A stretch of 64,000 nucleotides of DNA, from IMG/VR virus record IMGVR_UViG_3300045988_106581. One strand, 5' to 3'. A program made the translations under genes and the position numbers. Every line of letters starts with the position of its first letter. Within the stretch, counting starts at the first letter, position 1. Below, piece after piece: positions 503 to 53,890 of the stretch. Under the pieces are notes generated by a model, which did not search any database, was not told the origin of the DNA, and saw nothing but the letters and a program-made list of their open reading frames with translations. Origin of the DNA: a virus.

Positions 503-981
503 CAACCACACCCCACAAGGTCATCCAGATCCTGCGTCTTGAACGTCATGATTCTCACACGATGGTGTAAATCCATGTTGTCCTCGATGTTGGATGTGAT
601 TTTAAGTTGCTTGATTCCAAAAATTGTACTGCCGTGTAATTCTTTCTCTACAAGACCACTCAGATAGTCAACTCGTGTTGCACCGCCATGACCTTTCATC
701 TTCATCAACGCTTGATTCACAATAACCCACACAGTAAGTGTAAAGTTCTCATACCAATCGTTGACATTGCTGCGGTCGATCATGTTTACCTTAAAACAAA
801 TATAGCTGTGTGCTGCCTCAATCGTGTCGGGAATATGGAAGTATGGGAAGATATATGTATAAATCGCCTCGTCAGGCTCTTCAATATCGTCATTACCCAT
901 TGCTTCAACAAGTCCTTCCGTATTGACCAGCTTTAAAGCCAATTTGTTTTTGTAGTCAGTAATCAATTCACTCGTTGTCAC
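502..981 (-). CDS. hypothetical virion-module protein (159 aa)
   Basis: ORF track. It overlaps its neighbours by a few nt within the late operon. Confidence 0.6.
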   Translation of the reverse strand: MTTSELITDYKNKLALKLVNTEGLVEAMGNDDIEEPDEAIYTYIFPYFHIPDTIEAAHSYICFKVNMIDRSNVNDWYENFTLTVWVIVNQALMKMKGHGGATRVDYLSGLVEKELHGSTIFGIKQLKITSNIEDNMDLHHRVRIMTFKTQDLDDLVGCG

Positions 982-2003
982 AGCAAACTCACCACCTTAC
1001 ATTCGATAGATGTATTTGCCGTACCATCTGCATTTGTCAAAGAAATCCTAACAGTTGCACCGTCCATGATACTATTATTCAAAATACGAATTTTGAAAAC
1101 ATCATCCGTAGCAACCTGTGTTTCAACAAAGCTCTTGAACTCATCAAGGCAAATAAAACTCCACTTTGCAACTTCCGCAACCTCTTCACCCGTAACGCTT
1201 GTGAACACCGGAGTGAACTTTTTCCAAGAGCCACCAACACGAACTTCCGGCTTGCCTGCATACTTAATAGTAGCTGTTACCTGAGAACCCGCATCCGGCT
1301 TATCACTCTTATTGGGCTCAAAATAATCACAAATCATCTTCTCAGCATTATCAGTCTTACTGTTATACTGATCCTGCCGGATATTCAACACAAGGAACCC
1401 CTGTGTCTTGCCATGCAGTTCATAACGCTCTGTGCTCTGATCAACAGAAGTCGTAACATACGTTTTAGGTTCGCCATTGATGATTTCCAGCATAAAACGC
1501 TTATCAAGGTCGATCAGTGCGGTCTCGTCATCAAAAGGCATCTGCACTTTATACTCACGTTGACTCAATGAAGTCATAACGATTTCCTTATTATTTGCGT
1601 AATAAGGCTTGCTCAGCGTTGCCCAACGAGAGACTATCTCACCAGTAATCGGATTTTGCCATTGGATCTGGCGGTTACACAGCTCCATCTTACCACGAAG
1701 AAAAATTTCATCGTTTGGTTCAATCTCAGTTACCAGCCATTTACAGTTGTAACAGTCAACAATATCACCAAGATTCAAAGAATCGCCAGGATAAGCCTAG
1801 ATTTTCTTTTCTTTAGCAATACTATTACTGCGACTAACAACCAGCTTCTGAGGTAAGCCATTCACAAGAGTATTATCCTCATAATCAACACTATCCTTGA
1901 AGTGTGCAGCGAAGTCACGTTTTGCAAAAGCAATTTTTATATCTTTTTTGTTAGACATTTTTGCGGCACCGCCAACAGCTCGCGCCCTCGTATAAAAGTC
2001 CAT
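978..2003 (-). CDS. putative virion/tail protein read through an in-frame TAG (1797-1799). Alternatively two ORFs, 1797..2003 and 978..1778
   Basis: AAGGAGG lies 7 nt before the ATG at 2003. ORFs 1797..2003 and 978..1778 share one frame and are separated only by a TAG plus 18 nt with no other stop. The downstream ORF has no SD and only a TTG start. Confidence 0.5.
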
Positions 2004-8107: not shown

Positions 8108-9652
8108 TTAGAAGTCAATGTTAGAAATACAAATCGGCGGAGCAGTCATTGTCTCCACCGCAGACTGGCGCACTTTATCCTTACGACGTAATTCATATAG
8201 ACGATGAGCTAAAAGCACCATTGTGTACGCGCGGTCATCTTTCATTTTATTGGCGCGGTCTGGTGGTAACGCATAAGTTACAGAAGTGTTTTCGGGATTT
8301 GTGGTTTTCTGCATACTTGTAATCTCATTTTTCATAAGGTCAATGTTCACCCATGCCGTTTGCTCATCTAAAGACAGCTCGTGCGTTTTCAAAATTTCCT
8401 GACCAGTTGCCTTATCTACACCATCCACAACCTGAACGTAATCTCCACCGTTATATTCAAGAGGAAAGTGGATAACACCAAGATTCATCAATTCAATAAG
8501 CTCTTCAAACATGATGGAACGAAATTTACGCGGGCTAATCAAACGCAATTTGTCTACGGCGTCAGGATAACGAGCGTCATACCCTTCGTAAAGCTCATGA
8601 TTTGCATCAATAAATCCACGATGTTCTGTGCCGGATTTGTCAGTCCAGTTATTTAGCAAACCGTCTGCATAAGTAGAAGTACCGCCGCCGCCTGCGCCTT
8701 GATCAATCATTAACGAATCAATATACTCATAGTCTGGGTTCTGTCCGTTGTAATGAAGAATCAATTCACGCAACTCCTCGATTTGACGGTTTGAGTCCAT
8801 CTTGTATTTTTTTGAATTCGCTAAATCAACCATATTTACACAGTTGATGATATCGCCGCACATACCATTTTCTGGGTCATTATAAATACGCATAATTGAT
8901 ACGATAGAGTTATCCATAGTACGAGCAGGGTCAAAAGCAATCACATACTTATATTGCTTGTCCCAGTATAACTGCGGTAAGTATTTACGCTCATTACGGC
9001 GAACCGTACCCCACTTAACAATCTGATTTACACCGCCATCGCGGGATGGTTTATTATAATATTCACGCATTGCCTTCTCGTGCGCGGATTTTAAAGCTGC
9101 TTCAACCTTATCTCTTGTAAGCAGAGCTTTGTATGGTTTACCATTCATGTAGACCTGAATTGCAACATCGCAAATCATGTCACAAACAAAATAATCGCGG
9201 TCACCAGCAATCATTCGTTTTGCAAAGTTTTTGTAATACTTATAAAAAAGCTTCTCCATAGTATCTTGACTAGAAGCATATACGAGCTGTGTAGGTACTT
9301 TTCGAGGTTGAGTGTCTGGGTTATAAGAATCATTTGTATCGGTGACGAAATCCGTATTCTGTGTTGCAAAAGCTTCACAAACAGTAATTAACTCATCAGA
9401 GCAAAACGCCGCTTCATCAAAGAACACAAGAGTGGCTCTGCGCGAGCGATTGGCATCCGGATTGGAGTTCAATGTATTTATGGAACTACCGTTATAAAAT
9501 TCAACAACGTACCCGGCGGGATTATGACTAAATCCGCTTTTGTTAGTTGGAGATTTAACAGTTTCTTTTTCTGCAATGTCCGTTAAACTACGAATAGACG
9601 CTGCTGTTTTACCAACACGAGTTACAATTTCTTCTATCTTATTAAAAGTTTC
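8108..9652 (-). CDS. terL: terminase large subunit, exon 2 (Walker B and nuclease domain)
   Basis: The frame is open from 9655. It reads ...ETFNKIEEIVTRVGK...VVEFYNGSSINTLNSNPD...ATLVFFDEAAF (Walker B-like), but has no start codon of its own until the TTG at 9472. Confidence 0.75.
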   Translation of the reverse strand, partial: ETFNKIEEIVTRVGKTAASIRSLTDIAEKETVKSPTNKSGFSHNPAGYVVEFYNGSSINTLNSNPDANRSRRATLVFFDEAAFCSDELITVCEAFATQNTDFVTDTNDSYNPDTQPRKVPTQLVYASSQDTMEKLFYKYYKNFAKRMIAGDRDYFVCDMICDVAIQVYMNGKPYKALLTRDKVEAALKSAHEKAMREYYNKPSRDGGVNQIVKWGTVRRNERKYLPQLYWDKQYKYVIAFDPARTMDNSIVSIMRIYNDPENGMCGDIINCVNMVDLANSKKYKMDSNRQIEELRELILHYNGQNPDYEYIDSLMIDQGAGGGGTSTYADGLLNNWTDKSGTEHRGFIDANHELYEGYDARYPDAVDKLRLISPRKFRSIMFEELIELMNLGVIHFPLEYNGGDYVQVVDGVDKATGQEILKTHELSLDEQTAWVNIDLMKNEITSMQKTTNPENTSVTYALPPDRANKMKDDRAYTMVLLAHRLYELRRKDKVRQSAVETMTAPPICISNIDF

Positions 9653-10060
9653 CGATTATATAAATTAAAATTTAATGTACATCGCAACTGCACACTGCCG
9701 CATAAAACGGCCACACAATTTCTTGTCGTGCGTAGACTATTTCATCATCCAAATATAATTTGGAGCTTGATTTTTCCTCCGCCATAAGCTTGCGGTTTTA
9801 CTCTCCCACAAGGAGATAGTCGTTGAACCTTACCCTGTCATATAGACGTTACGGGCAGTGGCTGCATGAACATGGATTATTACGAGCTTTAGCACGCCAT
9901 AAAACGCTTTTATTTCAGCATAGCTCATCTCTACGTTTTTTCCGCTTTCGCACATTTACGTTTACCGTTTTCGATTCCGCTTTAGTGTAGAGCTTTACCA
10001 ATTACCTGCAATTAACCAAGAAGCACACACACATCTCTGTATATGTGAGGCAACTACCTT
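9653..10060 (-). other. group I intron (no ORF) interrupting terL
   Basis: It separates the Walker A exon from the Walker B exon and carries stop codons. It has an R-like element GGTTCAACGACTAT (reverse complement of 9816-9829) and an S-like element AAATAGTCTACG (reverse complement of 9731-9742), giving the P7 pairing GACTA/TAGTC. The 5' exon ends in U (..CAGAGU) and the intron ends in G (..AAUCG). Confidence 0.65.
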
Positions 10061-10363
10061 ACTCTGGTCACCGACAGATGACACTATATAAATACCCTGA
10101 TTCTCATACAATATAGCCTTTAGTAGAATGAAAACAGAACCTACAAAAGACTTACCAAAGTTTCGACTACACGCCCAAAGAACATGACTTGCATTCCAGC
10201 TTTGTTCCAGCATGTATGCCTGTGCGTCAAATAGTTGAATACCCAATAAATCTCTGGCCGCAATAACAGGATTACGCCGATAGAATGCAATCGTTGCCGC
10301 ATCACACTCGTAAATCTTACGTTTTACGGCAGTAATAATAGGCGCTCTTTGCTTCATTCTCAT
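10061..10363 (-). CDS. terL: terminase large subunit, exon 1 (Walker A)
   Basis: ...LWACSRNFGKSFVGSVFILLKA...IYIVSSVGDQS. After this point the ORF continues into intron sequence and stops. Confidence 0.75.
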
Positions 10364-11478: not shown

Positions 11479-11822
11479 ACAAACACCTCCATTCAAAATC
11501 AAAATAAAAGCCGTAGAACGTGCGCACATCCTACGGCAACAAAATACCCCGGCTCTTGCGCATCATGGAGAGGCCGTCGGGGTTAATCTAAATTAAGACC
11601 CATGACATTAGCTGCACTCGTATCATTGAGTTGCTTACTAACATAGGTCTGTTAAGCACAAAGTGATGTGATTGTGGTACACATTTTCAAAAGAGTCACA
11701 ATCACATCTATATCATCTATTTGGGCTTGCACCCTGCCAGCGAACCGGCATAATAATCAAAATAAACCTGCCGCCAGAGGGAGTTTAACTAACGGCAGGC
11801 TTGCAAAAGGGGAGATGCTGGG

Positions 11823-11893
11823 TGCGGGTAGTGGTGACGATCCACTCTATACTGGATTATGGGCCCAGCCAGCACACCGGCGCTGTCACCCGC
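11823..11893 (-). tRNA. tRNA-like, anticodon CAT (Met/Ile2), irregular T-arm
   Basis: Acceptor GCGGGTG/TACCCGC, anticodon arm CTGGG-CCCATAA-TCCAG. The T-stem has only 4 clean base pairs. Confidence 0.4.
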
Positions 11894-12022
11894 GTTATAT
11901 AGTCGGCTTGCTACACTATACATCGTGAACTGAAACCGATAACTCGAAACGTCACGTTATAATCGTTCTGTTTCTACAAAGACAATTCTTTATCTGCCAT
12001 TACAATTTAATTCAGTTGGCCT

Positions 12023-12097
12023 TGGCACGCCCACTCCGAATCCAACAGAGATAAGTGAGTTTAGAGCTCACCGTCTTAGGCATTAAACGATAGGCGC
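12023..12097 (-). tRNA. amber suppressor tRNA, anticodon CTA
   Basis: Acceptor GCGCCTA/TGGGCGT (with G-U pairs) followed by G-CCA. D-arm GTTT/AGAC. Perfect anticodon stem GTGAG/CTCAC with loop C-T-CTA-A-A (anticodon at 12062-12064). T-arm CTCTG-TTGGATT-CGGAG. Confidence 0.75.
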
Positions 12098-12102
12098 ATA
12101 AT

Positions 12103-12179
12103 TGGTGTATCCGGCGAGATTTGAACTCTGCGATACCTCGATTAAAAGTCGAGTGCCTTACCAGCTTGGCTACGAATAC
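12103..12179 (-). tRNA. tRNA-Lys (TTT)
   Basis: Acceptor GTATTCG/CGGATAC followed by A-CCA. Anticodon arm CTCGA-CTTTTAA-TCGAG. The T-stem has one bulged A. Confidence 0.6.
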
Positions 12180-12246: not shown

Positions 12247-12338
12247 TGGCGCTGCTGATCCGATTCGGACGGATGAATGGGTTTAACCATTGGTGGTGTT
12301 CAGGGCCACTGCGTTAGACCAGACTACGCTACAGCAGC
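12247..12338 (-). tRNA. type II tRNA with a long variable arm, anticodon probably TGA (Ser)
   Basis: Acceptor GCTGCTG/CAGCAGC followed by G-CCA. T-arm ATCCG-TCCGAAT-CGGAT. Variable-arm hairpin AATGG/CCATT. The anticodon loop CCTGAAC has C at position 33, which is unusual. Confidence 0.5.
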
Positions 12339-12404: not shown

Positions 12405-12482
12405 TGGTGATCCAGGTTGGAGTCGAACCAACGATGTTTCTAATGTCACGGAGTTACAGTCCGCTATCTTCGCCACTGGATA
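12405..12482 (-). tRNA. tRNA-Tyr (GTA)-like
   Basis: T-arm GTTGG-TTCGACT-CCAAC, anticodon arm GCGGA-CTGTAAC-TCCGT, encoded CCA. The D-arm is degenerate and pair 1-72 is mismatched. Confidence 0.5.
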
Positions 12483-12723
12483 TACTGACTCATATAAAAC
12501 AAGCATCCATCAAACCATCCGAGCTAAGTTGAATTGTTCTCGTGTTGATAAAACGCTTGTTTTAAACTTTAATGGTCCGCACTTACGGTGGCGGAACACC
12601 TGATGTTTTAAATCGCGCACTGACACGGCGCAATGCGATTGGCTTGGCATTTTGCTCCTCGAAGCTACTCTGCGTCTGACTTTACAGCTTATACACGGTT
12701 GCAACCAATGACCGCTTTCGCCA

Positions 12724-12794
12724 TGCCACCTACAGGAATCGGACCCGTATGTGAAAATTACAAATTTCCCATTCTACCATTAAATTAAGGCGGC
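12724..12794 (-). tRNA. tRNA-Thr (TGT)
   Basis: Acceptor GCCGCCT/AGGTGGC, anticodon arm GGAAA-TTTGTAA-TTTTC, T-arm ACGGG-TCCGATT-CCTGT. Confidence 0.7.
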
Positions 12795-12921
12795 ACATAA
12801 AATAACCCGTAGACATCCGCCTACGGGCATAGAAAAGGAGACAATAAATGATGTCCCAAAGCAGACCTTGCGGTCGTACTTCTTTTTTAATTACCCACTT
12901 ATTGGTAGGGTGTCACCGCTT

Positions 12922-13920
12922 TTAATTCAAACGCACAATATGCGTTTTACTCTCAATCAACTTTCCATCCTTGTCCTGATAGACAACAATGAAACCCTCT
13001 CGCTGCGGAGTGGTCAGTTTACCGTCTGCATACTCCATTTTTGAAGTATCACAACAACAGCCCTGCTCGTATAGATTGTACTTTCCAACAGAATAAGAGC
13101 CGACACGATGTACATGACTCATAACCAGCGAATCAAAATCAAGTCCAATATCCTGAAAATAGCGTAGCGCTTTTTCACTTGTTTTCAAAATTCCAGATGA
13201 GAATGCCATAGGATGACACAGAACAGTGCTTCCTATCTGGCTGTACCAACTGTCATTGTAAATGATTTCAATTCCTTCTGCGCTAAACACCTCAATCAAA
13301 GGATCATAATGAACCTTTGTATGAAGCTCCTTGTTATAATGGTTAAATCCATCAATAAGAATAAGTTCAAGTGCAGTCTTCGGCATTAAGGCGAGAAGAT
13401 CCTCGTCAATGTTCTTGGCAAGATAATTCTGGAAACGAATATCATGATTGCCGTAATTGACCACAACCTTTTTAGGCCGTAGCATTTCAATCAGGTCAAT
13501 CAAATACCGTCTTGCCAACAGAATTTCATCCATTGGACTTTGCCGATACACACGCGAAAAACGCGACAGGGCAGCGGCATCTACGCAATCTCCGTTTACC
13601 TGAAGGATATCAATCTTGCCAGCGTACTCACTAAAAGTCTCAATAGGCTTCTGGAATGGAATATGTAGATCGGAAATAGACAGAATGCAGGTTCCTACAT
13701 CTCTATTAAATAATGACTCCTGATACTGCATACCCGCACGGAATGCCTTAAAACGCTTGCGATATGCACACTCACCAAAATTCTTGCCCAACTCATCATT
13801 GAGCACCTTGGATGCACCATCCCAAGTCAACTCTCTAGCCAGAACAGCATTCCCGATTCTTACAAAGAAGTCATCGCTCGTTTCTTCTGGCCGTTTATTA
13901 TAGCAACCCATTGGCATCAA
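12922..13920 (-). CDS. calcineurin-like metallophosphoesterase
   Basis: Motifs SDLHIPF, NGDCVD, GNHD and SHVH occur in the canonical order. Confidence 0.65.
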   Translation of the reverse strand: MMPMGCYNKRPEETSDDFFVRIGNAVLARELTWDGASKVLNDELGKNFGECAYRKRFKAFRAGMQYQESLFNRDVGTCILSISDLHIPFQKPIETFSEYAGKIDILQVNGDCVDAAALSRFSRVYRQSPMDEILLARRYLIDLIEMLRPKKVVVNYGNHDIRFQNYLAKNIDEDLLALMPKTALELILIDGFNHYNKELHTKVHYDPLIEVFSAEGIEIIYNDSWYSQIGSTVLCHPMAFSSGILKTSEKALRYFQDIGLDFDSLVMSHVHRVGSYSVGKYNLYEQGCCCDTSKMEYADGKLTTPQREGFIVVYQDKDGKLIESKTHIVRLN

Positions 13921-22395: not shown

Positions 22396-22650
22396 ATTGC
22401 CTCCAGTTCTAATTTAGTTGTACTGACGAGTCTGTATTATATATATGTATAAAGATACATAGTCGTCAGTACAAGTACAACTATCACAAAATATCTCTTA
22501 ATGGTTTACTCGACTTGAAGCTATGGAGCGTAAGCGACATAGATTCAATTTGAGTAAACCTACGAGCGTCCTCAGACGCGAGATCTCTCTCCACGCCCTG
22601 TCTGGAAGACTACTATAAATATCCACCACACTACATCTATCTTCTTTGAG

Positions 22651-22671
22651 GTATCCTGTGTAATGTAGCTA
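22651..22671 (-). promoter_or_regulatory. conserved 21-nt motif, copy 2 (leftward)
   Basis: GTATCCTGTGTAATGTAGCTA on the plus strand, 255 nt upstream of the 22395 start. Confidence 0.5.
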
Positions 22672-22709
22672 TCTACACTCATTATATCATCAAAATGCCA
22701 AAAGTTCAA

Positions 22710-22730
22710 TAGCTAAGTAACACAGGATAC
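22710..22730 (+). promoter_or_regulatory. conserved 21-nt motif, copy 3 (rightward)
   Basis: TAGCTAAGTAACACAGGATAC, divergent from copy 2 with 38 nt between them. Confidence 0.5.
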
Positions 22731-23205
22731 AAATATTTTAGCACCTATTATAATAAGGTATGTTTCTTGGAATGTTATCTATTCATGACTCGCAAGCTCG
22801 CTTCCGCTCTATGAGCGGGCGACCATTGCTAAGTAAGCTGACGGTCACTACGTTCTCTCTGCATATTTAGTTCAAGTCGCTATTACACATTATTCTCCAG
22901 AAAGGATATCCAAATGCTCTATATATTCTGTGTAAGCTGCCAGAGGCTACAATCATACTCCTTATAAGTCTTTAAAGTCTCTGAGAGTGCTACTCAGATG
23001 CTAGATCAGTCCATTTATGGCGATAGGGGAGTATAGATGAGTACAAATAGATACTTTACGCTCCGAAGAATGATCATTTTCGGTACATTTAGGGAACACA
23101 TCGGAAAAACCCGCATGAATCCTAGGTTTTTCGGCTTTTATTAGGTCAAAAAGGAACAAAATAGGTGGTAAAAGATACAAATAAAAAGAAAAACTAGCAA
23201 AAATA

Positions 23206-23221
23206 TAACGTAAATACGTTA
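23206..23221. promoter_or_regulatory. palindromic operator-like site TAACGT-N4-ACGTTA (copy 2 of 3)
   Basis: ATATAACGTaaatACGTTAAAT. Confidence 0.45.
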
Positions 23222-23974
23222 AATTCTAGCTAGTTACCGAATGGGCTACCGATTGAAAAATAGCGATCTTAAACCACTTTTTTGGTATTTTTGATGGAAA
23301 ATGAGAGATTTGTGAGTATATGTAGAAGAGGGTATAGGGATGTATTTTGGGGATATTTTTGTCAGGGGAAAGTGTACCCCGGGGAGGGGAGGAGGTAGAG
23401 AGTGTGATGGAGTGCCGGGATGGGATAAGATGGAGATTAGGAAGGTTTGATAGGAATTAGAAAGAAGGTAATTTTTGTGGAGATTGCTGTGTAAATTGTA
23501 TAGTAATATGGAATATAACAAATTGATAATTGGTGATTATGAATAAGAAAGATGTACTGGGGGGCTCGGCCTGCTGCCTAGAACGTCCAAAAAATGAAAA
23601 GTGCACCCCTACCTTGTCCAGTGCTGGAAATGCTCAAAATACGACACTCAACAGGGCAAGGAACGGCGGGAAGTTTTGGCGGTATCTAGTATCTGAAAAC
23701 AGGAGCAACAAAAGTTAAAAGTTTTAACTATTTTAATTCAATCTTACACATTGCCGGGTGTTTCTTTTGTTCGCTAATTGTTGACACGTTGCCGGGCGTT
23801 TCATATCTTATGTACTTTTCATATACTGCCTATATATTTTTTGATATACCATTCTTTTTCCCTTATAAGGTAATTATATATTATATTTTATCCTTATTTC
23901 AGCCAAAAACACCCACGATTCACTAAAATATAATTTTTAACGATATATCGCTATTTTATAAAAATCTATAATTC

Positions 23975-24011
23975 TTGCAACTTTTGTGCATGAATTGCAA
24001 CTTTTATACAT
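23975..24011. repeat. two direct repeats TTGCAACTTTT(G/A)T(G/A)CAT
   Basis: Read directly at 23975-23991 and 23995-24011. Confidence 0.6.
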
Positions 24012-24018
24012 AGACTTC

Positions 24019-24098
24019 CTAGCAAGGAACCGCTATAATTAAGCCACAATCTAGCAAGGAACCTAGCAAGGAACCTAGCAAGGAACCTAGCAAGGATT
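24019..24098. repeat. 12-bp iterons CTAGCAAGGAAC: one isolated copy plus four tandem copies (the last is degenerate)
   Basis: Copies at 24019-24030, 24051-24062, 24063-24074, 24075-24086 and 24087-24098 (the last ends ..GATT). Confidence 0.8.
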
Positions 24099-24919
24099 GC
24101 GCCGAACTTTGAAAACTGAATCAATCTTTTGTGGGAACGGCTCAAATGTTCCCGCTTAATCTAGGCAAGTGCAACAAGCCCATCGTGGTTATAAATCAGC
24201 AGTCTACCGGAACGGTAAAGCACCTAGAAAGTTTGATTCAGTCGGAAAAATTCGGCGGTGTAGGTAGCACCGATTTAAAAAAATCCAGCGCTTGCAAATG
24301 GGCGTCAATCGTGCATTCCGCACGCAATCAAACACACTTGCTATCCTACCGTATAGGTTAGAAAGATACGGAAAACAGGAAACACGGCTTGACCGTTTAA
24401 TCACTGTTTTGGTTTTGGCAATGCAAGCCGAAAAAACCTAAAAAAGCCGTTTGTCCGATTAAGGCATAGAGGGCAAACAATCCGCATTCACCGGATACTA
24501 GAACGCATTGTATGCACACAAAAACCGTTGTACAGAAAAGAGGGCAACGGCCATACATTGCAAGACTAGACAAGTAAGGGCAAGAAAGAAAGTACAGTTT
24601 GCGTATACTACAAACTAACTTTTGTGGGTTTATATCCACGGGCTACACGTTGCAAGGTTTATACTTTGCTTGTATGGTTTATGCCATACTCTATTGTAAC
24701 AAAGTCAAGTGTAGTTTGCAAGGGCTGTACAGCAAAGGTTTTTTATCTGTTTTCCAGCAAATTAAACAGACACAAAAGGTGTACATACTTTGCCCTTTTT
24801 AGGGCAAATCATAAGCTCATAAGCAAGGCGTTTTGTCTAGTTTGTGGGCTTTGATTTGCGCTAAAACGCAAAACCATACGACTATACACAATTCAGAACA
24901 CAAAGAAAAGAGGATTATT

Positions 24920-28892: not shown

Positions 28893-29049
28893 TCGTACAT
28901 TTACAAAATAGTCATGAATAAACAACGTATCAACGAACTAAAATGTGACGTTAATAAAATCTACATTTTAGTGCTTGACAAAACAAGTGGTATCCTGTAT
29001 CATGTAGCTAGAAATGGTAGTCCGTCAGAGGACTTTTATTTTTACTGTG

Positions 29050-45400: not shown

Positions 45401-45724
45401 GTGGGAAGAATTATTGACGCAGATGCCTTTTATCAACAAGAATGGATTCGTTGCGGGATGTATGAACCAATGATTGGCGTTGATAAAGTGGATTCCAACA
45501 AGGGGACATTATACAGAACCTTGCGAAGCCGATTAAATAAATCCCCAGAGGTGGATGCAATTAGAGTTGTTCGCTGTAAGGATTGTTGTCTTTGGAACAC
45601 ATGGGACAAGCAAGAAGAAATGTGCAGCTGTGCTCACTTCACGTTGGATGATTCCAATGCTGTATATACAAAGCCCGAAGATTTTTGTAGCTATGCTAGT
45701 CGTAGATATTATTGGGAGAAATAG
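45401..45724 (+). CDS. hypothetical Cys-rich protein (107 aa)
   Basis: ORF track. GTG start after GGGGGTGA. Confidence 0.45.
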   Translation: MGRIIDADAFYQQEWIRCGMYEPMIGVDKVDSNKGTLYRTLRSRLNKSPEVDAIRVVRCKDCCLWNTWDKQEEMCSCAHFTLDDSNAVYTKPEDFCSYASRRYYWEK

Positions 45725-45733
45725 GATAAAGCT

Positions 45734-45913
45734 ATGTGGTATGAACACATCAGATGCAAGGAATGCGGTGGAATCATCGGCTCGTTTGATGGAGGAAAAA
45801 CGTACAGATGTGATAGATGCAAGCAGGAGTATCCGATTTATAGCATCAAATATGACTTTGTGTTTTCAAATTCAAAGACAGGGTGGGTATTTCCTGTAAT
45901 TGCAGTCGAATAA
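45734..45913 (+). CDS. hypothetical zinc-ribbon protein (59 aa)
   Basis: CKECGG...CDRC. Below the ORF-track cutoff. Confidence 0.4.
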   Translation: MWYEHIRCKECGGIIGSFDGGKTYRCDRCKQEYPIYSIKYDFVFSNSKTGWVFPVIAVE

Positions 45914-49365: not shown

Positions 49366-51579
49366 ATGAGAACGCTTTTGCTGTTCCGTGGAGCTCCAGG
49401 TTGTGGGAAGTCTACCTATATTAAAGAGCATAATCTTGAGCAGTACGTATTGAGTGCTGATACACTTCGCCTTATGTGCCAGAGCGCACAGGAAACACCT
49501 GCCGGGAAGCTGGAGATTTCTCCGCAGAATGATGATGTTGTATGGGAAATGCTTTTTAAACTGCTTGAGGTGCGTATGAGTCACGGCGAGTTTACCGTGA
49601 TTGATGCAACGAATTCCAAGACGGTCGAAATGAATCGTTATAAGAATCTTGCAAAACAGTATCGTTATCGGATGTATGTTATTGACATGACTGACCTTCC
49701 GATTGAGGAGTGCAAACGAAGAAACGCTCAGAGAGAATGGCTGAAGCGAGTTCCTGAAGCGGTCATTGATAAGATGTACGCTCGGTTTGTTACTCAAAAA
49801 GTTCCTTCTGGCGTGAAAGTTCTTCCTTCTACTACGGACGTGATGTCCGATTTGAACTACTATCCGAATGACTTCAACCAGTGGAAGAAGATTCACGTCA
49901 TCGGTGATGTTCATGGCTGTTATACTTGTTTAAGTGAATACCTTGGTGAAATGAGGGACGACGAACTTTATATCCTCGTTGGTGATTATCTCGATCGTGG
50001 CATCGAAAATGTTGAGGTGTTCAAGTTCTTGTGTGATGTTGTAAATAACAACCGCAAGAATGTGATCCTTTTGGAAGGAAATCACGAGCGTTGGCTGAAC
50101 AAGTGGGGGCATGATGAACCGGTTCAGAGTGAAGAGTTTGCAAACTACACTCGCCCGCAGCTCTTTAAAGCCGGTATTGACAAGAACACTGCTCGTAAGA
50201 TCTATTCCAGAGTCGGCCAATGTGCCTACTTTGAGTATGATGGGAAGAGGTATTTCGTGAGCCACGGTGGTTTGAGTTATCTGCCTTATTTCCTTCCTTT
50301 TGTATCTGCTGATCAGATGATTAAAGGTGTAGGTCGTTATCCTGATATGCTAACCGTGGCTGAGTCTTGGGAAAAATCGATGCCGGATAGCTACATTCAG
50401 ATCTTCGGTCATCGAAATGTGCAGGATGTTCCTATTGATATGGGGCATCGGTGCTACAACCTCGAAGGAAAAATCGAGTTTGGTGGATATCTCCGTTGCG
50501 TGGAACTTGAACACGGTCAGTCAATCAAATGTGTAGAAACTAAGAACAATGTGTTCCGAAAAGAAGAGCCAAAGACTGAAACTGCCGTTGAAATGAAAAC
50601 TGAGTTTGATAACGCAGAACTTGTTAGTAAGATGCGTCAAAGCAAATATGTGTTTGAGAAGCGATTCGGAGATATTTCTTCTTTTAACTTCTCTCGTGAA
50701 GCATTTTATAAGAAGCACTGGGATGAGGTTTCTACCAAAGCAAGGGGATTGTTCATTAACACAAAGACGAATAAAATCGTAGCTCGAAGCTATGATAAGT
50801 TTTTTGCTGTCGGTGAGCGGAACGAAACGAGAATTGGAAACCTTCAGAACACTTTGAAATTTCCGATGACTGCATATCTGAAAGAGAACGGATTTCTTGG
50901 TATCATCTCGTATGATGCAGAACAGGACGGTCTGTTTATTGCAAGTAAATCTACTCCTGAAGGGCCTTTTGCAGATATGTTCCGAAAGATTCTCATGGAT
51001 ACGACTTCTGATGAAGATCGTAAGAATCTGAAGGAAGTTGCAAAAGAGAATGGTTCTATCATTTTTGAGGTGATTGATCCTGTGAATGATGCTCATATCA
51101 TCGAATACAAGAAACCGCACATTGTTTTGCTGGATATTGTTGCGAATGATATGAGCATCAGTGTGATGGATTACGATGACCTGAAGCGTGTTGCTGAAAA
51201 GTGTCATTTGCAGATTAAGGAGAAGGTTAAGATCTTTGAGAGCTGGAGTGAATTCTATCCTTGGTATGAAGAAGTCATGAATGAGAATTATCTGCACCAT
51301 GGCATTGAGCATATTGAAGGCTTTGTCTTGAGAGATAACAACAATTTCATGTTTAAGCTGAAACTTCCTTATTATAAGCACTGGAAGTTCTTGCGTGGTG
51401 TTATGCAGAGCGTTCAGAAACGTGGCTATTATGAAAATACCGCAAAGTTGTTTACTGCTGAGGATAACCTGTTCTATGGTTGGATGCGTGAGCAACGAGA
51501 GAAAGATCAAGAGGCGTTTAGCAAGAAGGGTATCATTCAGCTGCGGAATGAGTTCTATGCAAGTCAGCAGAAGAGCTGA
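49366..51579 (+). CDS. trifunctional RNA-repair enzyme: polynucleotide kinase, metallophosphatase and RNA ligase (Pnkp-like)
   Basis: P-loop GAPGCGKST. Phosphoesterase motifs GDVHGC, GDYLDRG, GNHE and GHRN. Ligase motifs KENG (I), FEVI (III) and EGFVLRD...FKLK (V). The domain order matches Clostridium thermocellum Pnkp. Confidence 0.75.
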   Translation: MRTLLLFRGAPGCGKSTYIKEHNLEQYVLSADTLRLMCQSAQETPAGKLEISPQNDDVVWEMLFKLLEVRMSHGEFTVIDATNSKTVEMNRYKNLAKQYRYRMYVIDMTDLPIEECKRRNAQREWLKRVPEAVIDKMYARFVTQKVPSGVKVLPSTTDVMSDLNYYPNDFNQWKKIHVIGDVHGCYTCLSEYLGEMRDDELYILVGDYLDRGIENVEVFKFLCDVVNNNRKNVILLEGNHERWLNKWGHDEPVQSEEFANYTRPQLFKAGIDKNTARKIYSRVGQCAYFEYDGKRYFVSHGGLSYLPYFLPFVSADQMIKGVGRYPDMLTVAESWEKSMPDSYIQIFGHRNVQDVPIDMGHRCYNLEGKIEFGGYLRCVELEHGQSIKCVETKNNVFRKEEPKTETAVEMKTEFDNAELVSKMRQSKYVFEKRFGDISSFNFSREAFYKKHWDEVSTKARGLFINTKTNKIVARSYDKFFAVGERNETRIGNLQNTLKFPMTAYLKENGFLGIISYDAEQDGLFIASKSTPEGPFADMFRKILMDTTSDEDRKNLKEVAKENGSIIFEVIDPVNDAHIIEYKKPHIVLLDIVANDMSISVMDYDDLKRVAEKCHLQIKEKVKIFESWSEFYPWYEEVMNENYLHHGIEHIEGFVLRDNNNFMFKLKLPYYKHWKFLRGVMQSVQKRGYYENTAKLFTAEDNLFYGWMREQREKDQEAFSKKGIIQLRNEFYASQQKS

Positions 51580-51694: not shown

Positions 51695-51778
51695 GGGGAT
51701 ATGGTGAAATGGCAGCCACGCTGGTTTCAAGTCCCAGTGTCGAAAGACGTATCGGTTCAAATCCGATTATCCCTACCA
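51695..51778 (+). tRNA. tRNA-Leu (CAA)
   Basis: Acceptor GGGGATA/TATCCCT followed by A-CCA. Loop TT-CAA-GT. Long variable arm. T-arm ATCGG-TTCAAAT-CCGAT. Confidence 0.75.
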
Positions 51779-51978
51779 TGAAGATCAGTTGGTTTAGCTC
51801 GCGCAAGAGAAAACATGTGCCTTGGCGAACGACAAAGTGTGAATACCGGTTGATACACACAAGCCCTACCGGAGACGAATAAGGTGAAAGTTGGTTGGCC
51901 ACCGGCTGAATAGACTCCAATCCGCTAGAAAACTAAACCATAAAACGAACGTTAGGCTGTTTCTGATCTTCTATATAA

Positions 51979-52062
51979 GCCACCGTGGTGAAATTGGCAG
52001 GCACGAGGGACTTAAAATCCCTTTCTGGCAACAGAGTACGGGTTCAAATCCCGTCGGTGGCA
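51979..52062 (+). tRNA. tRNA-Leu (TAA)
   Basis: Acceptor GCCACCG/CGGTGGC. Anticodon arm AGGGA-CTTAAAA-TCCCT. Long variable arm. T-arm ACGGG-TTCAAAT-CCCGT. Confidence 0.8.
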
Positions 52063-52069
52063 TTTATAT

Positions 52070-52145
52070 CCGGGTGTAGCTCAGTTGGAAGAGCGCGTGC
52101 TTTGGGAGCATGAGGCCGCAGGATCATGACCTGTCACTCGGACCA
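52070..52145 (+). tRNA. tRNA-Pro (TGG)
   Basis: Acceptor CCGGGTG/CACTCGG followed by A-CCA. Anticodon arm CGTGC-TTTGGGA-GCATG. Confidence 0.75.
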
Positions 52146-52150
52146 TATAA

Positions 52151-52224
52151 TGCGTCGTAGCCAAGCGGTTAAGGCAGGGTCCTTTGAAGTCCCGATTGCG
52201 AAAGTTCGATTCTTTCCGGCGCAA
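52151..52224 (+). tRNA. tRNA-Gln (TTG)
   Basis: Acceptor TGCGTCG/CGGCGCA. Loop CT-TTG-AA. T-arm GAAAG-TTCGATT-CTTTC. Confidence 0.75.
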
Positions 52225-52258
52225 TAACGAATAAAACGTACAGGAAGTGGAAATGTAA

Positions 52259-53011
52259 GTGGCGTTAATTGATTTATATTCAAAAGAGGAACTAAAGACA
52301 ATAGTTGAAAATTCTTACTCAATAGCAGAGATTATTAGGAAGTTGGGATATTCAACGAATTCCGGAAATAATAATCAGACTATTAAGTCTCGTATAAAAG
52401 AATACGAAATTGACACGTCTCATTTCAGACATCAAAATTGCACAAAGAGATCACCGGAAAATATTTTCGTTGAGAACTCAACAGCAAAGCAATCAGTTCT
52501 GCGACGTTGGTATAAGAAAGGTAATTATTCTCAATATGTATGTTCTATTTGTGGTTTGCTTCCAGAATAGAATGATAAACCATTGACTTTGATTCTCGAC
52601 CATATCAACGGAAAAAATAAAGATGATAGGATTGAAAATCTTAGATGGGTCTGTCCCAATTGTAATCAACAATTAGACACAACTGGATACAAGAATCCAA
52701 ATCGAGCAGTATCTGCGAGAAGAGTTTATGAAAGACGTACTGTTGAAAAGAAAATCTGTCCTAGATGTGGCTCGTCAATGAGTTATAATGCCGACATGTG
52801 TAAATCATGTTGGGAAGTAGAGAAAAAATCAAAAAAGAAACCTTCACGTGACATTTTAAAGAGCTTAATTCATACAAAGGGCTTTATGGAAATTGGAGAT
52901 GAATATGGCGTAACAGATAGAGCTGTTGCAAAATGGTGCAGATCTGAAGGGTTGCCATATCGAATGACGGACATTAAGAAAATTCCTGATGAAGAGTGGG
53001 AGAAATTATAA
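52259..53011 (+). CDS. HNH homing-type endonuclease with an in-frame TAG (52568-52570). Either a pseudogene or read through
   Basis: ORFs 52259..52570 and 52583..53011 are in one frame. The junction reads ..CSICGLLPE-TAG-NDKPLTLILDHINGKNKDDRIENLRWVCPNCN, so the HNH core lies just after the TAG. Confidence 0.6.
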
Positions 53012-53071
53012 TGTACATATTTTATTTTGGTGAGTCTCCGCCTTGAATTGCAAGGCATCCTCGATTTATAT

Positions 53072-53153
53072 GCGGATATGGTGGAATGGCAGACACGCCA
53101 GACTTAGGATCTGGTGCTTCGGCGTGTGGGTTCGATGCCCACTATCCGCACCA
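53072..53153 (+). tRNA. tRNA-Leu (TAG)
   Basis: Acceptor GCGGATA/TATCCGC followed by A-CCA. Anticodon arm CCAGA-CTTAGGA-TCTGG. Long variable arm. Confidence 0.8.
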
Positions 53154-53254
53154 CGGTCATGAATCGTTGTTGTTCATGGTTGAACTCCTTTGACCACTAT
53201 TATTCCCAGCTCGCCAGTGATGGTGCAGTAGTGCTTTGCAAGCTGGGTTTTCAT

Positions 53255-53329
53255 GCAGCGGTCGTATAACGGTTAGTACATCGTCCTTCCAAGTCGATGG
53301 AGTGGGTTCGATTCCCATTCGCTGCTCCA
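53255..53329 (+). tRNA. tRNA-Gly (TCC), copy 1
   Basis: Acceptor GCAGCGG/TCGCTGC followed by T-CCA. Loop CT-TCC-AA. T-arm GTGGG-TTCGATT-CCCAT. Confidence 0.7.
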
Positions 53330-53510
53330 ATCTCGTATGGGTAGGATTTTTAGCAGTCAGATCCTGCTGCGCCTGTGCGAGATACCACCCCGAAAGGGGC
53401 TAACGAAATTATCCATGTACGTTATTCTCGGCTCGCTCGAAAGAGTGCAGCGTGCCTTTGCAAGCCGAGCATCCCAGCCTAGTGATGCCAGTTGCTAGGT
53501 TGGTTCTTAT

Positions 53511-53586
53511 GCGACTGTAGTTCAATTGGCAGAGCGTCAGATTTCCAATCTGAATGTTGCGGGATCGTCCCCCGTCAGTCGCTCCA
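53511..53586 (+). tRNA. tRNA-Gly (TCC), copy 2
   Basis: Acceptor GCGACTG/CAGTCGC followed by T-CCA. Anticodon arm TCAGA-TTTCCAA-TCTGA. Confidence 0.7.
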
Positions 53587-53716
53587 CACGCAGCCCCTTA
53601 CGCTGCACCGGTTACTCAGAGCCGAAAGGAACCTATATGTTACGACATGGTTGCCAAGAGTGATCATATTGGAACGCGACGTAGCTTGGATAGTGAGAAT
53701 TAAATTCTGAGGTATA

Positions 53717-53786
53717 CGGCTGGATAGCTTAATGGTAAAAGCGCTCGGAAACACCGAGAGATGAGGTTCGATTCCTCCGCTGGCAT
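53717..53786 (+). pseudogene. degenerate tRNA-like sequence
   Basis: Good D-arm (GCTT-AATGGTA-AAGC) and T-arm (GAGG-TTCGATT-CCTC). However, the anticodon loop has only 5 nt (CTCGG-AAACA-CCGAG) and the acceptor strands do not pair. Confidence 0.3.
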
Positions 53787-53813
53787 CGCGCCGACGAAAG
53801 TCGGCGTTTGCAT

Positions 53814-53890
53814 GGGATAGTAGCTCAGTTGGTCAGAGCTGGCGGCTCATAACCGCTTGGTCGGGAGTTCGAATCTCTCCTGTCCCACCA
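53814..53890 (+). tRNA. tRNA-Met (CAT)
   Basis: Acceptor GGGATAG/CTGTCCC followed by A-CCA. Anticodon arm GGCGG-CTCATAA-CCGCT. T-arm GGGAG-TTCGAAT-CTCTC. Confidence 0.8.

Follow-up and report, generated by a model that had tools for sequence, protein, structure and literature searches.

Which amino acid is inserted at TAG by a phage that carries a tRNA able to read this stop codon, and how much of the phage genome depends on the answer? The question is raised by a tRNA gene with the anticodon CTA (CUA in the RNA) at 12023-12097 on the minus strand of a stretch of viral DNA, IMG/VR virus record IMGVR_UViG_3300045988_106581. This whole stretch of 64,000 nucleotides is called the window below; it makes up about half of a ~135-kb genome. 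Suppressor tRNAs with this anticodon (Sup-CTA) are known from phages using code 15, in which TAG is reassigned to Gln, among them crAss-like, Lak, Garnet, and similar phages (10.1101/2021.08.26.457843; PMC9523058; 10.1101/2022.06.29.495998). Borges and co-authors saw only two stop codon reassignments in phages, TAG to Gln and TGA to Trp (10.1101/2021.08.26.457843). We found no report of a TAG-to-Trp reassignment in a phage in the literature searched, in which subscription journals are thinly covered.

The original prediction, made from the window alone, implied code 15 and added that the amino acid cannot be read from the sequence. The second statement holds for a single sequence but not for the comparative data used here, which resolve the question well. 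The implied glutamine did not survive the comparison: TAG stands at Trp positions, and the tRNA looks like a C35U derivative of a phage tRNA-Trp. We consider it probable that the intended meaning of TAG in this phage is Trp, provided by a functional suppressor that arose from the phage tRNA-Trp through the change of C35 to U (anticodon CCA to CUA).

TAG codons in the related loci

Genes were called with TAG as a sense codon in 383 related loci (6.5 Mb), the encoded proteins were clustered and aligned, and the columns with TAG were compared. The residue aligned with an internal TAG is W at 13 sites, Q at four, and another one at seven. Every site that is present in at least three loci and has a clear majority residue is a W site. 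The exceptions among the sites in at least three loci are a variable column (E/S/N), an aromatic one (F/W/Y), and one in which just a single member lacks TAG. Six to seven W sites are common to many genomes. They include a site in the terminase, two in a tail-module protein of 341 amino acids (aa), found in 20 and 15 loci, and sites in other tail-module proteins.

The alternative codon at the W-type sites is TGG only, never CAG or CAA. In these genes CAG is 2.4 times commoner than TGG, and the change of CAG to TAG is also a single transition, so neutral CAG-to-TAG changes should dominate if glutamine were inserted. Given codon abundance, the numbers of W and Q sites in the first 172 loci (12 and four, respectively) correspond to a binomial p-value of 2e-4.

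The W-type TAGs are a feature of late genes: per 100 kb, late-block loci contain 2.67 of them and early-block loci 0.06, a difference of ~45 times. Their presence also follows the anticodon of the tRNA. With ~40 kb covered per contig, W-type TAGs were found in 34 of the 42 contigs with the CUA tRNA and in none of the 13 contigs with a CCA tRNA (Fisher test, p = 1.4e-7). Counted from the side of the codons, at least 54 of 60 carriers of W-type TAGs have a CUA tRNA; among the matches listed none has a CCA tRNA, and no CUA tRNA was detected in the other six. A sparse code with TAG as Trp in late genes, in which the CCA allele is ancestral and still circulates, seems the likely arrangement in this family.

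TAG codons in the window

Two convincing in-frame TAGs were found in the 64 kb, one in the gene of the 341-aa tail-module protein and one in a gene of an HNH homing endonuclease; only these two genes change if TAG is read as a sense codon. Under code 11 the tail-module gene yields only a 266-aa fragment (978-1778), which leaves the N-terminal ~70-78 positions of its PHROG profiles uncovered, and full-length 341-aa homologues exist. The residue in the column of codon 69, where the TAG stands, is W in the seven closest homologues and in all 42 family members that have no TAG there. A further 20 related loci have TAG at the same codon. The context of the site reads EKKI-X-AYPGDSLNLGDIVDCYNCK or KKI-X-AYPGD, with X for TAG.

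In the HNH protein the TAG at codon 104 lies within PE-W-NGKPL, and its column contains W in 117 and "Q" in three of the best 120 of 2400 homologues. Two of the three glutamines, in the public proteins P0001 (locus L002) and P0005 (locus L383), are TAG codons translated under code 15, as we checked in the DNA of these two; the third protein is P0004. The HNH gene of L002, which is 97% identical to that of the window, has two TAGs, both in Trp columns. In that of L383 there are four; one falls within a variable stretch and the other three are in Trp columns. The variant in L228 and L294 has three further TAGs. As a result, all six Trp positions of the HNH protein are TAG in one relative or another.

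P0001, P0004, and P0005 stand in public databases with Gln at invariant Trp columns. Other public proteins, such as P0126, are shortened at the N-terminus and begin after the TAG; the 266-aa form of the 341-aa tail protein is an example.

Terminase large subunit

Both recodable Trp codons of the window terminase, 56 (10196-10198) and 63 (10175-10177), are TGG. Codon 56 is TAG in four related loci. Codon 63, located just before the Walker-A-like motif CSRNFGKS, is TAG in 68 related loci that represent 29 distinct protein sequences, and the context there is SHVL-X-ACSR. Since the window has TGG at both sites, TAG decoding is needed here for the tail-module and HNH genes.

In the window the terminase gene is interrupted: its first 102 residues are encoded at 10363-10058 and the remainder from 9652 on, with an insert of ~405 nt at 9653-10057 on the minus strand. 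The insert matches the full Rfam model Intron_gpI at 9712-10050 (35.2 bits, less than the gathering score of 50; E = 4e-7), and the gene is uninterrupted in relatives (616 aa). The insert is probably a group I intron.

The suppressor tRNA gene

ARAGORN calls a 75-nt tRNA at exactly the predicted position, with the anticodon CTA at position 34, and assigns no other anticodon to it; it is one of 13 tRNAs called in the window. Rfam model RF00005 (gathering score 29 bits) matches at 12026-12097 of the minus strand over the full model (positions 1-71) with 40.9 bits and E = 3.2e-05, which is among the weaker tRNA scores of the window. The label "tRNA-Pyl" given by ARAGORN follows from the anticodon only, because any tRNA with CUA is so named.

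The RNA, GCGCCUAUCGUUUAAUGCCUAAGACGGUGAGCUCUAAACUCACUUAUCUCUGUUGGAUUCGGAGUGGGCGUGCCA, is divided in the reverse complement as GCGCCUA-UC-GUUU-AAUGCCUA-AGAC-G-GUGAG-CUCUAAA-CUCAC-UUAU-CUCUG-UUGGAUU-CGGAG-UGGGCGU-G-CCA. The acceptor stem has 7 bp, the D stem 4 bp, the anticodon stem 5 bp (perfect), and the T stem 5 bp. The anticodon loop is CU-CUA-AA, the D loop has 8 nt and the variable loop 4 nt, and the discriminator G73 is followed by an encoded CCA. Thus the cloverleaf and the features listed in the original prediction are all present. Its description did not state the minus strand, the G1·U72 wobble as the first acceptor pair, and the unusual D and T loops. The D loop AAUGCCUA contains no GG and the T loop is UUGGAUU, both non-canonical; the canonical elbow (G18G19 in the D loop and T54-Psi55-C56 in the T loop) was looked for in the window tRNA and is absent. 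Judged by eye in the family alignment, positions 19 and 56 covary (C:G, G:C, A:U) in 13 of 15 variants, so the elbow contact may be kept in another form.

The fold alone is weak evidence: the minimum-free-energy structure is the cloverleaf, yet its energy is unexceptional (z = -1.12). Comparison with relatives is far more informative. Over 15 distinct relatives, 98.4% of the cloverleaf cells are paired, against 35-49% in the control with slid alignments. Compensatory changes on both sides are seen at 13 of the 21 pairs, in the D, anticodon, and T stems, which none of 500 shuffles reaches. In the same 15 variants the acceptor stem and G73 do not vary. Taken as a single sequence this is a mid-quality tRNA call that the comparative data make solid, and the covariation leads us to regard the suppressor tRNA as real and under selection.

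Ancestry of the suppressor

The same slot of the same tRNA cluster contains a CUA tRNA, a tRNA-Trp(CCA), or no tRNA called by ARAGORN, depending on the relative. The CUA and CCA genes have in common the acceptor stem GCGCCyr / yGGrCGU, the G1·U72 pair, G73, and the anticodon loop CUC[U/C]AAA; the acceptor stem of the CCA sibling differs only by a C4·A69 mismatch. A pattern scan of IMG/VR together with a regular-expression search of the loci gave at least 117 contigs with exactly one tRNA of the family, at least 104 with CUA and at least 13 with CCA. No contig has both among the matches listed.

GenBank contains 804 phage records that match the CCA sibling; of the 30 matches listed, 29 are on genes annotated as tRNA-Trp. 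The CUA sequences fall into at least six diverged types. Type B matches annotated tRNA-Trp genes too; type C, that of the window, is the most diverged and is tied to tRNA-Trp through the family alignment only. All 137 CUA tRNAs called by ARAGORN in the 383 loci belong to the suppressor family, and none resembles the phage tRNA-Gln(UUG).

As for membership in the tRNA-Trp lineage, the anticodon is CUA and not CCA, sequence homology is present, and G73 is found in all 15 variants. G73 is the major determinant for the tryptophanyl-tRNA synthetase (TrpRS) in Escherichia coli and Bacillus subtilis; in B. subtilis the other determinants are G2-C71, G3-C70, and G4-C69, with A1-U72 and G5-C68 as minor ones (PMC9976931). 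The acceptor stem of the suppressor family is G1·U72, C2-G71, G3-C70, C4-G69, C5-G68, so that only G3-C70 matches this set. For rice mitochondrial tRNA-Trp, G73 with G1-U72 is reported as an identity set (PMC9976931).

The contigs for which neither a CUA nor a CCA tRNA had been called (54, some of them with W-type TAGs) seemed to be counter-examples, but in at least 21 of them the pattern scan revealed a CUA tRNA of the family. In locus L195 a type E suppressor of 75 nt with a weak D stem and the T loop CUCGAAA occupies the usual slot (12909-12983) and is missed by ARAGORN. Type E is abundant, so surveys based on tRNA finders undercount the suppressors in this family. ARAGORN also reports tRNAs with odd anticodons in relatives (L002 3440-3513, L012 3217-3295), "His" ATG and, in 29 of the first 172 loci, "Ser" ACT. 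They could result from misfolded calls or represent additional non-standard tRNAs.

Extent of recoding

A recoded genome, as implied by the original prediction, was not found. With TAG as a sense codon the coverage by stop-to-stop open reading frames (ORFs) rises from 83% to 92%, while with TGA or TAA as sense it reaches 94-95%. The proposed comparison of coding density under codes 11 and 15 is therefore uninformative, because making any one stop codon sense raises the coverage similarly.

The idea that TAG is not an ordinary terminator here fared better. Among stop codons preceded by 40 strongly coding codons (according to a codon-usage model trained on long ORFs) there are 39 TAA, 32 TGA, and one TAG, and this single TAG has an equally strong coding signal downstream. 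A gene call under code 15 gives 99 genes with 55 TAA, 42 TGA, and at most one TAG as stops. In the first 172 related loci ~3700 gene instances end with TAA or TGA against ~19 that possibly end with TAG, and in the related loci analysed, mostly late-gene regions, TAG makes up ~2% of Trp codons. In this phage family TAG hardly ever terminates a gene and is an infrequent sense codon. The purge of TAG terminators shows an adaptation of the phage genome to the suppressor.

The sole candidate for a TAG terminator in the window ends the gene 45401-45724. A small ORF follows in the same frame (within 45401-45913), with an ATG four codons on, and suppression would therefore yield a fusion product. Some other candidates for TAG codons were rejected. 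Frames in the gap at 22.4-24.9 kb are rich in TAG and have no coding potential, and TAGs near the 5' ends of the genes at 29002, 37351, and 38288 result from the choice of the start codon and are not in-frame sense codons.

Proposed mechanism and alternative explanations

The codon positions suggest that the host TrpRS charges the suppressor with Trp through G73 and the acceptor stem in spite of the lost C35. An invariant acceptor end would be expected if a single synthetase recognizes the suppressor by it. Because C34 can pair with G alone, the suppressor should read UAG only, and there it would compete with the host release factor 1 (RF1). In relatives TAG is found in essential late genes, which thus cannot be completed without the suppressor; located 5' of the terminase and tail block, the suppressor would act as a translational lock on late (lytic) expression. 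Such a role in late genes was previously proposed for other recoded phages, and the authors of Mgcod found Sup-CTA tRNAs at the same position, 5' of the late block (10.1101/2022.06.29.495998). The code 15 phages have no dedicated synthetase, none was found among the 62 window proteins scanned here, and a host enzyme would have to be borrowed.

Several points weigh against tryptophan. C35 is itself a major TrpRS identity element, and the E. coli tRNA-Trp(CUA) is aminoacylated with Gln, its plant equivalent by the lysyl-tRNA synthetase (LysRS) (PMC9976931). The pairs 2-71, 4-69, and 5-68 differ from the Trp set of B. subtilis, which is possibly not that of the host; distant prophage relatives are found in Clostridia. 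A phage-encoded synthetase or release factor could lie in the half of the ~135-kb genome outside the window. The window itself has only two TAG sites. Since TGG to TAG is a one-step transition, some of the W-type sites found in single loci could be nonsense mutations or assembly errors. Finally, codon 83 of the HNH gene of L383 (at about 1005-1007) is a true Gln codon in a Trp column, where L002 has TAG and the window TGG; it is possibly a trace of a TGG-TAG-CAG path, or else the site is tolerant.

The most obvious alternative is the standard phage code 15 with insertion of glutamine, the only phage TAG reassignment that we found published. The Gln charging of the E. coli tRNA-Trp amber suppressor (PMC9976931) speaks for it as well, and public databases translate TAGs of the family as Q (P0001, P0004, P0005). 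We also count for glutamine that U35, G73, the weak 1-72 pair, G3-C70, and G10 of the suppressor overlap with what we take to be the identity set of the E. coli glutaminyl-tRNA synthetase (GlnRS). Four TAGs do align with Gln, which argues for this alternative and against tryptophan; but each of them was found in a single locus, one of them in a genome with a CCA tRNA according to ARAGORN typing, while all sites shared by several genomes with a clear majority residue are W with TGG as the only alternative. The excess of TAG expected from the abundant CAG codons is not seen, all six Trp positions of the HNH protein are affected, the "Q" of the databases falls on invariant Trp columns, and the suppressor is unrelated to the phage tRNA-Gln. 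We find glutamine distinctly improbable. Ambiguous decoding, in which several synthetases charge the suppressor (with Trp and with Gln or Lys) and a fraction of correct product suffices, is easier to accept and still unlikely. The C35U change weakens recognition by TrpRS and creates U35, which is read by GlnRS and LysRS (PMC9976931); TAG is kept rare, as expected if it is costly or imprecise; and one variable column (E/S/N/T) has TAG in eight loci. On the other hand, the TAG beside the Walker-A-like motif of the terminase in 68 loci suggests long-term tolerance at an essential site, and the invariance of the acceptor stem and G73 in highly diverged variants fits recognition by one enzyme.

Two further alternatives were considered. 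The suppressor might have the host as its main target, where it would read through TAG stops, or else replace cleaved tRNAs or evade their cleavage; the TAGs of the phage would then be incidental nonsense mutations rescued by chance. This would suit the sparseness of TAG (two sites in 64 kb) and the RNA-repair functions beside the tRNA clusters, a kinase-phosphatase-RNA ligase fusion and an RlaP-family protein. It is very hard to reconcile with TAG sites that are conserved in essential late genes of many genomes, track the CUA allele, and do not occur in CCA genomes, or with the purge of TAG terminators, and we give it little credence. That the gene is a pseudogene, a chance cloverleaf, or a tRNA-Pyl could be argued from the low Rfam score, the non-canonical loops, the non-significant folding energy, and the "tRNA-Pyl" label, but compensatory covariation and conservation of the family in more than 100 contigs make this scarcely credible. 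A tRNA-Pyl has a 6-bp anticodon stem, a 3-nt variable loop, and a short D loop, is accompanied by pylS and pylBCD genes, and is rejected here on the 5-bp, 4-nt, and 8-nt elements of the suppressor; no pyl-type family was found among the 62 window proteins by a Pfam search. Returning to decoding as Trp, we favour, with somewhat less assurance than the codon meaning itself, a broader description: a widespread family of ~135-kb human-gut phages, probably of Clostridia, midway in a reassignment of TAG to Trp, with the C35U allele as the driver and both alleles segregating.

The phage and the surroundings of the gene

The features of the window are collected in Table 1. The suppressor is the last gene of a minus-strand cluster of five tRNAs in the order Thr-UGU, Tyr-GUA, Ser-UGA, Lys-UUU, CUA, which is bracketed by two terminator-like hairpins (pattern matches). 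The order of genes on this strand is a block with a PhoH-like protein, a ClpP-like protease, and a metallophosphoesterase, then the tRNA cluster, a 389-aa gene, the terminase large subunit, and structural and tail genes. The suppressor thus lies in a tRNA cluster just upstream of the terminase and tail genes, in agreement with its predicted place beside the late genes. The ~480 nt 3' of it (11538-12022) contain no convincing ORF and end at a strong terminator-like hairpin; within them, 11819-11901 is 88% identical to an unannotated phage contig from human faeces, MT836002.1.

Table 1. Coordinates of the features of the window that are discussed in the text
Feature	Position	Strand	Evidence
Suppressor tRNA(CUA), sequence type C, probably derived from tRNA-Trp	12023..12097	-	ARAGORN, Rfam, fold, covariation, homology to sibling tRNA-Trp(CCA)
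tRNA Lys-UUU	12103-12179	-	ARAGORN, Rfam
tRNA Ser-UGA	12247-12338	-	ARAGORN; no Rfam report at the gathering threshold
tRNA Tyr-GUA	12405-12491	-	ARAGORN, Rfam
tRNA Thr-UGU	12723-12795	-	ARAGORN, Rfam
Terminator-like hairpin that follows the metallophosphoesterase gene and directly precedes the tRNA cluster	12805..12828	-	Consensus scan, pattern match only
Terminator-like hairpin, 12-bp stem and T run, ~480 nt downstream of the suppressor	11510..11537	-	Consensus scan, pattern match only
341-aa tail-module gene, requires read-through of one in-frame TAG	978..2003	-	High coding potential on both sides of TAG
In-frame TAG, codon 69 of the 341-aa gene, conserved Trp column	1797..1799	-	Sequence check, homologues
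250-aa HNH homing endonuclease gene with one in-frame TAG, inside the second tRNA cluster	52259..53011	+	Translation; 2400 homologues, full-length ~250 aa
In-frame TAG, codon 104 of the HNH gene, PE-W-NGKPL context	52568..52570	+	Conserved Trp column
Terminase large subunit, exon 1	10058..10363	-	tblastn, family alignment, codon check
Terminase large subunit, exon 2	8108..9652	-	Translation, tblastn
Sole candidate TAG terminator, gene 45401-45724	45722..45724	+	Coding score drops after TAG; relatives stop earlier with TAA or TGA

Megablast and blastn searches found no close relative among GenBank phages, only matches of tRNA size. In IMG/VR, the 927-aa protein of the window is encoded at 83-99% identity in more than 250 contigs of ~125-140 kb, nearly all from the human gut, and similar sets of relatives are obtained with its 515-aa and 737-aa proteins. 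Distant relatives (42-56% identity) are found in genomes of Clostridia: Anaerocolumna xylanovorans DSM 12503, Lachnospiraceae, Tyzzerella, and Acutalibacteraceae. In the relative L001, genes near the homologue of the 341-aa gene match the Pfam families YomW and YomU_Tube, and a DnaE-type polymerase and an integrase are also found there. We take YomU and YomW to be genes of the tail region of the SPbeta prophage. The host is likely a gut member of Bacillota, and the phage is probably temperate. Plus-strand genes of the window include those of a MazF/PemK-type toxin, a phage integrase, a C-5 cytosine DNA methylase, and a DHH phosphoesterase (Pfam scan), which fit a temperate lifestyle. A Pfam search for a synthetase or a release factor among the 62 proteins of the window, which covers about half of the genome, returned none.

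Divergent gene blocks are separated by ~2.5 kb (22400-24900) without an ORF with coding potential under any assumption on stop codons; this stretch possibly has a regulatory role or contains an origin. Positions 49366-51579 (+), directly upstream of the second tRNA cluster (51695-53890), encode a 737-aa fusion protein with the parts P-loop kinase (AAA_33), metallophosphoesterase, and T4 Rnl1-type RNA ligase. The window also encodes an RlaP-family protein (in Pfam, RNA repair pathway DNA polymerase beta family). Together with the fusion it looks like a tRNA-repair module, possibly one that counters host anticodon nucleases. A weak additional tRNA-like Rfam match lies at 53719-53785 (+), with 30 bits at a gathering score of 29 and no ARAGORN call.

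Comparison with known systems and significance

The phage resembles the code 15 phages in having a tRNA(CUA) at the 5' end of the late block, TAG concentrated in late genes and avoided as a terminator, and a host that presumably uses the standard code. Unlike them, it has TAG at Trp and not Gln positions and a tRNA that would descend from tRNA-Trp; its late modules contain only ~1-3 TAGs each, and the coding density is not lowered. The phages with code 4 (Agate, Jade, and Topaz), in which TGA is read as Trp, are similar in that a stop codon turns into Trp in late genes of gut Firmicutes phages. They use a UCA suppressor, which is better tolerated by TrpRS, whereas the codon here is TAG. Both TrpRS and RF1 are encoded by some of the Jade phages themselves (10.1101/2021.08.26.457843), whereas none was found among the 62 window proteins scanned.

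The closest parallel in codon and meaning is the plastid of Balanophora, where UAG means Trp and is read by a duplicated tRNA-Trp mutated to CUA, a change described as "exceptionally rare" (PMC13128298). The codon, its new meaning, the CUA copy of a CCA tRNA-Trp, and the use of an existing TrpRS are the same, although charging in the phage is deduced from codon positions. The plastid code is presumably NCBI translation table 32. The Balanophora code belongs to a plant organelle whose genome is reduced and extremely rich in AT and in which the release factor pRF1 has been lost, whereas the phage faces the RF1 of its host, is polymorphic for the CCA and CUA alleles, and has captured few codons. 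In E. coli the laboratory amber suppressor su7 (supU) is likewise a CCA-to-CUA change in a bacterial-type tRNA-Trp with G73. It is charged with Gln (PMC9976931), while the phage tRNA serves Trp positions and has the acceptor pairs G1·U72, C2-G71, C4-G69, and C5-G68.

The consequences for annotation are practical. TAG is read as Q or genes are shortened, tools that know only code 15 put Gln at invariant Trp sites, and the terminases of 68 related loci are affected. If a natural tRNA-Trp(CUA) is indeed read as Trp, it would show that recognition by TrpRS survives the loss of C35, which would be useful for designing amber suppressors of the Trp family, and the phage family would be a natural source of such tRNAs that insert Trp.

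If the reading as Trp is true, this would be a third stop codon reassignment in phages beside TAG to Gln and TGA to Trp, reached by a route parallel to that of Balanophora, and the first TAG-to-Trp code in viruses or in the bacterial world. The dependence of an essential packaging gene on a tRNA of the phage would make a simple lock on the lytic functions of an apparently temperate phage. With CCA and CUA alleles in one phage population and captured codons that track the allele, codon capture becomes observable and testable, and the family would represent its living intermediate.

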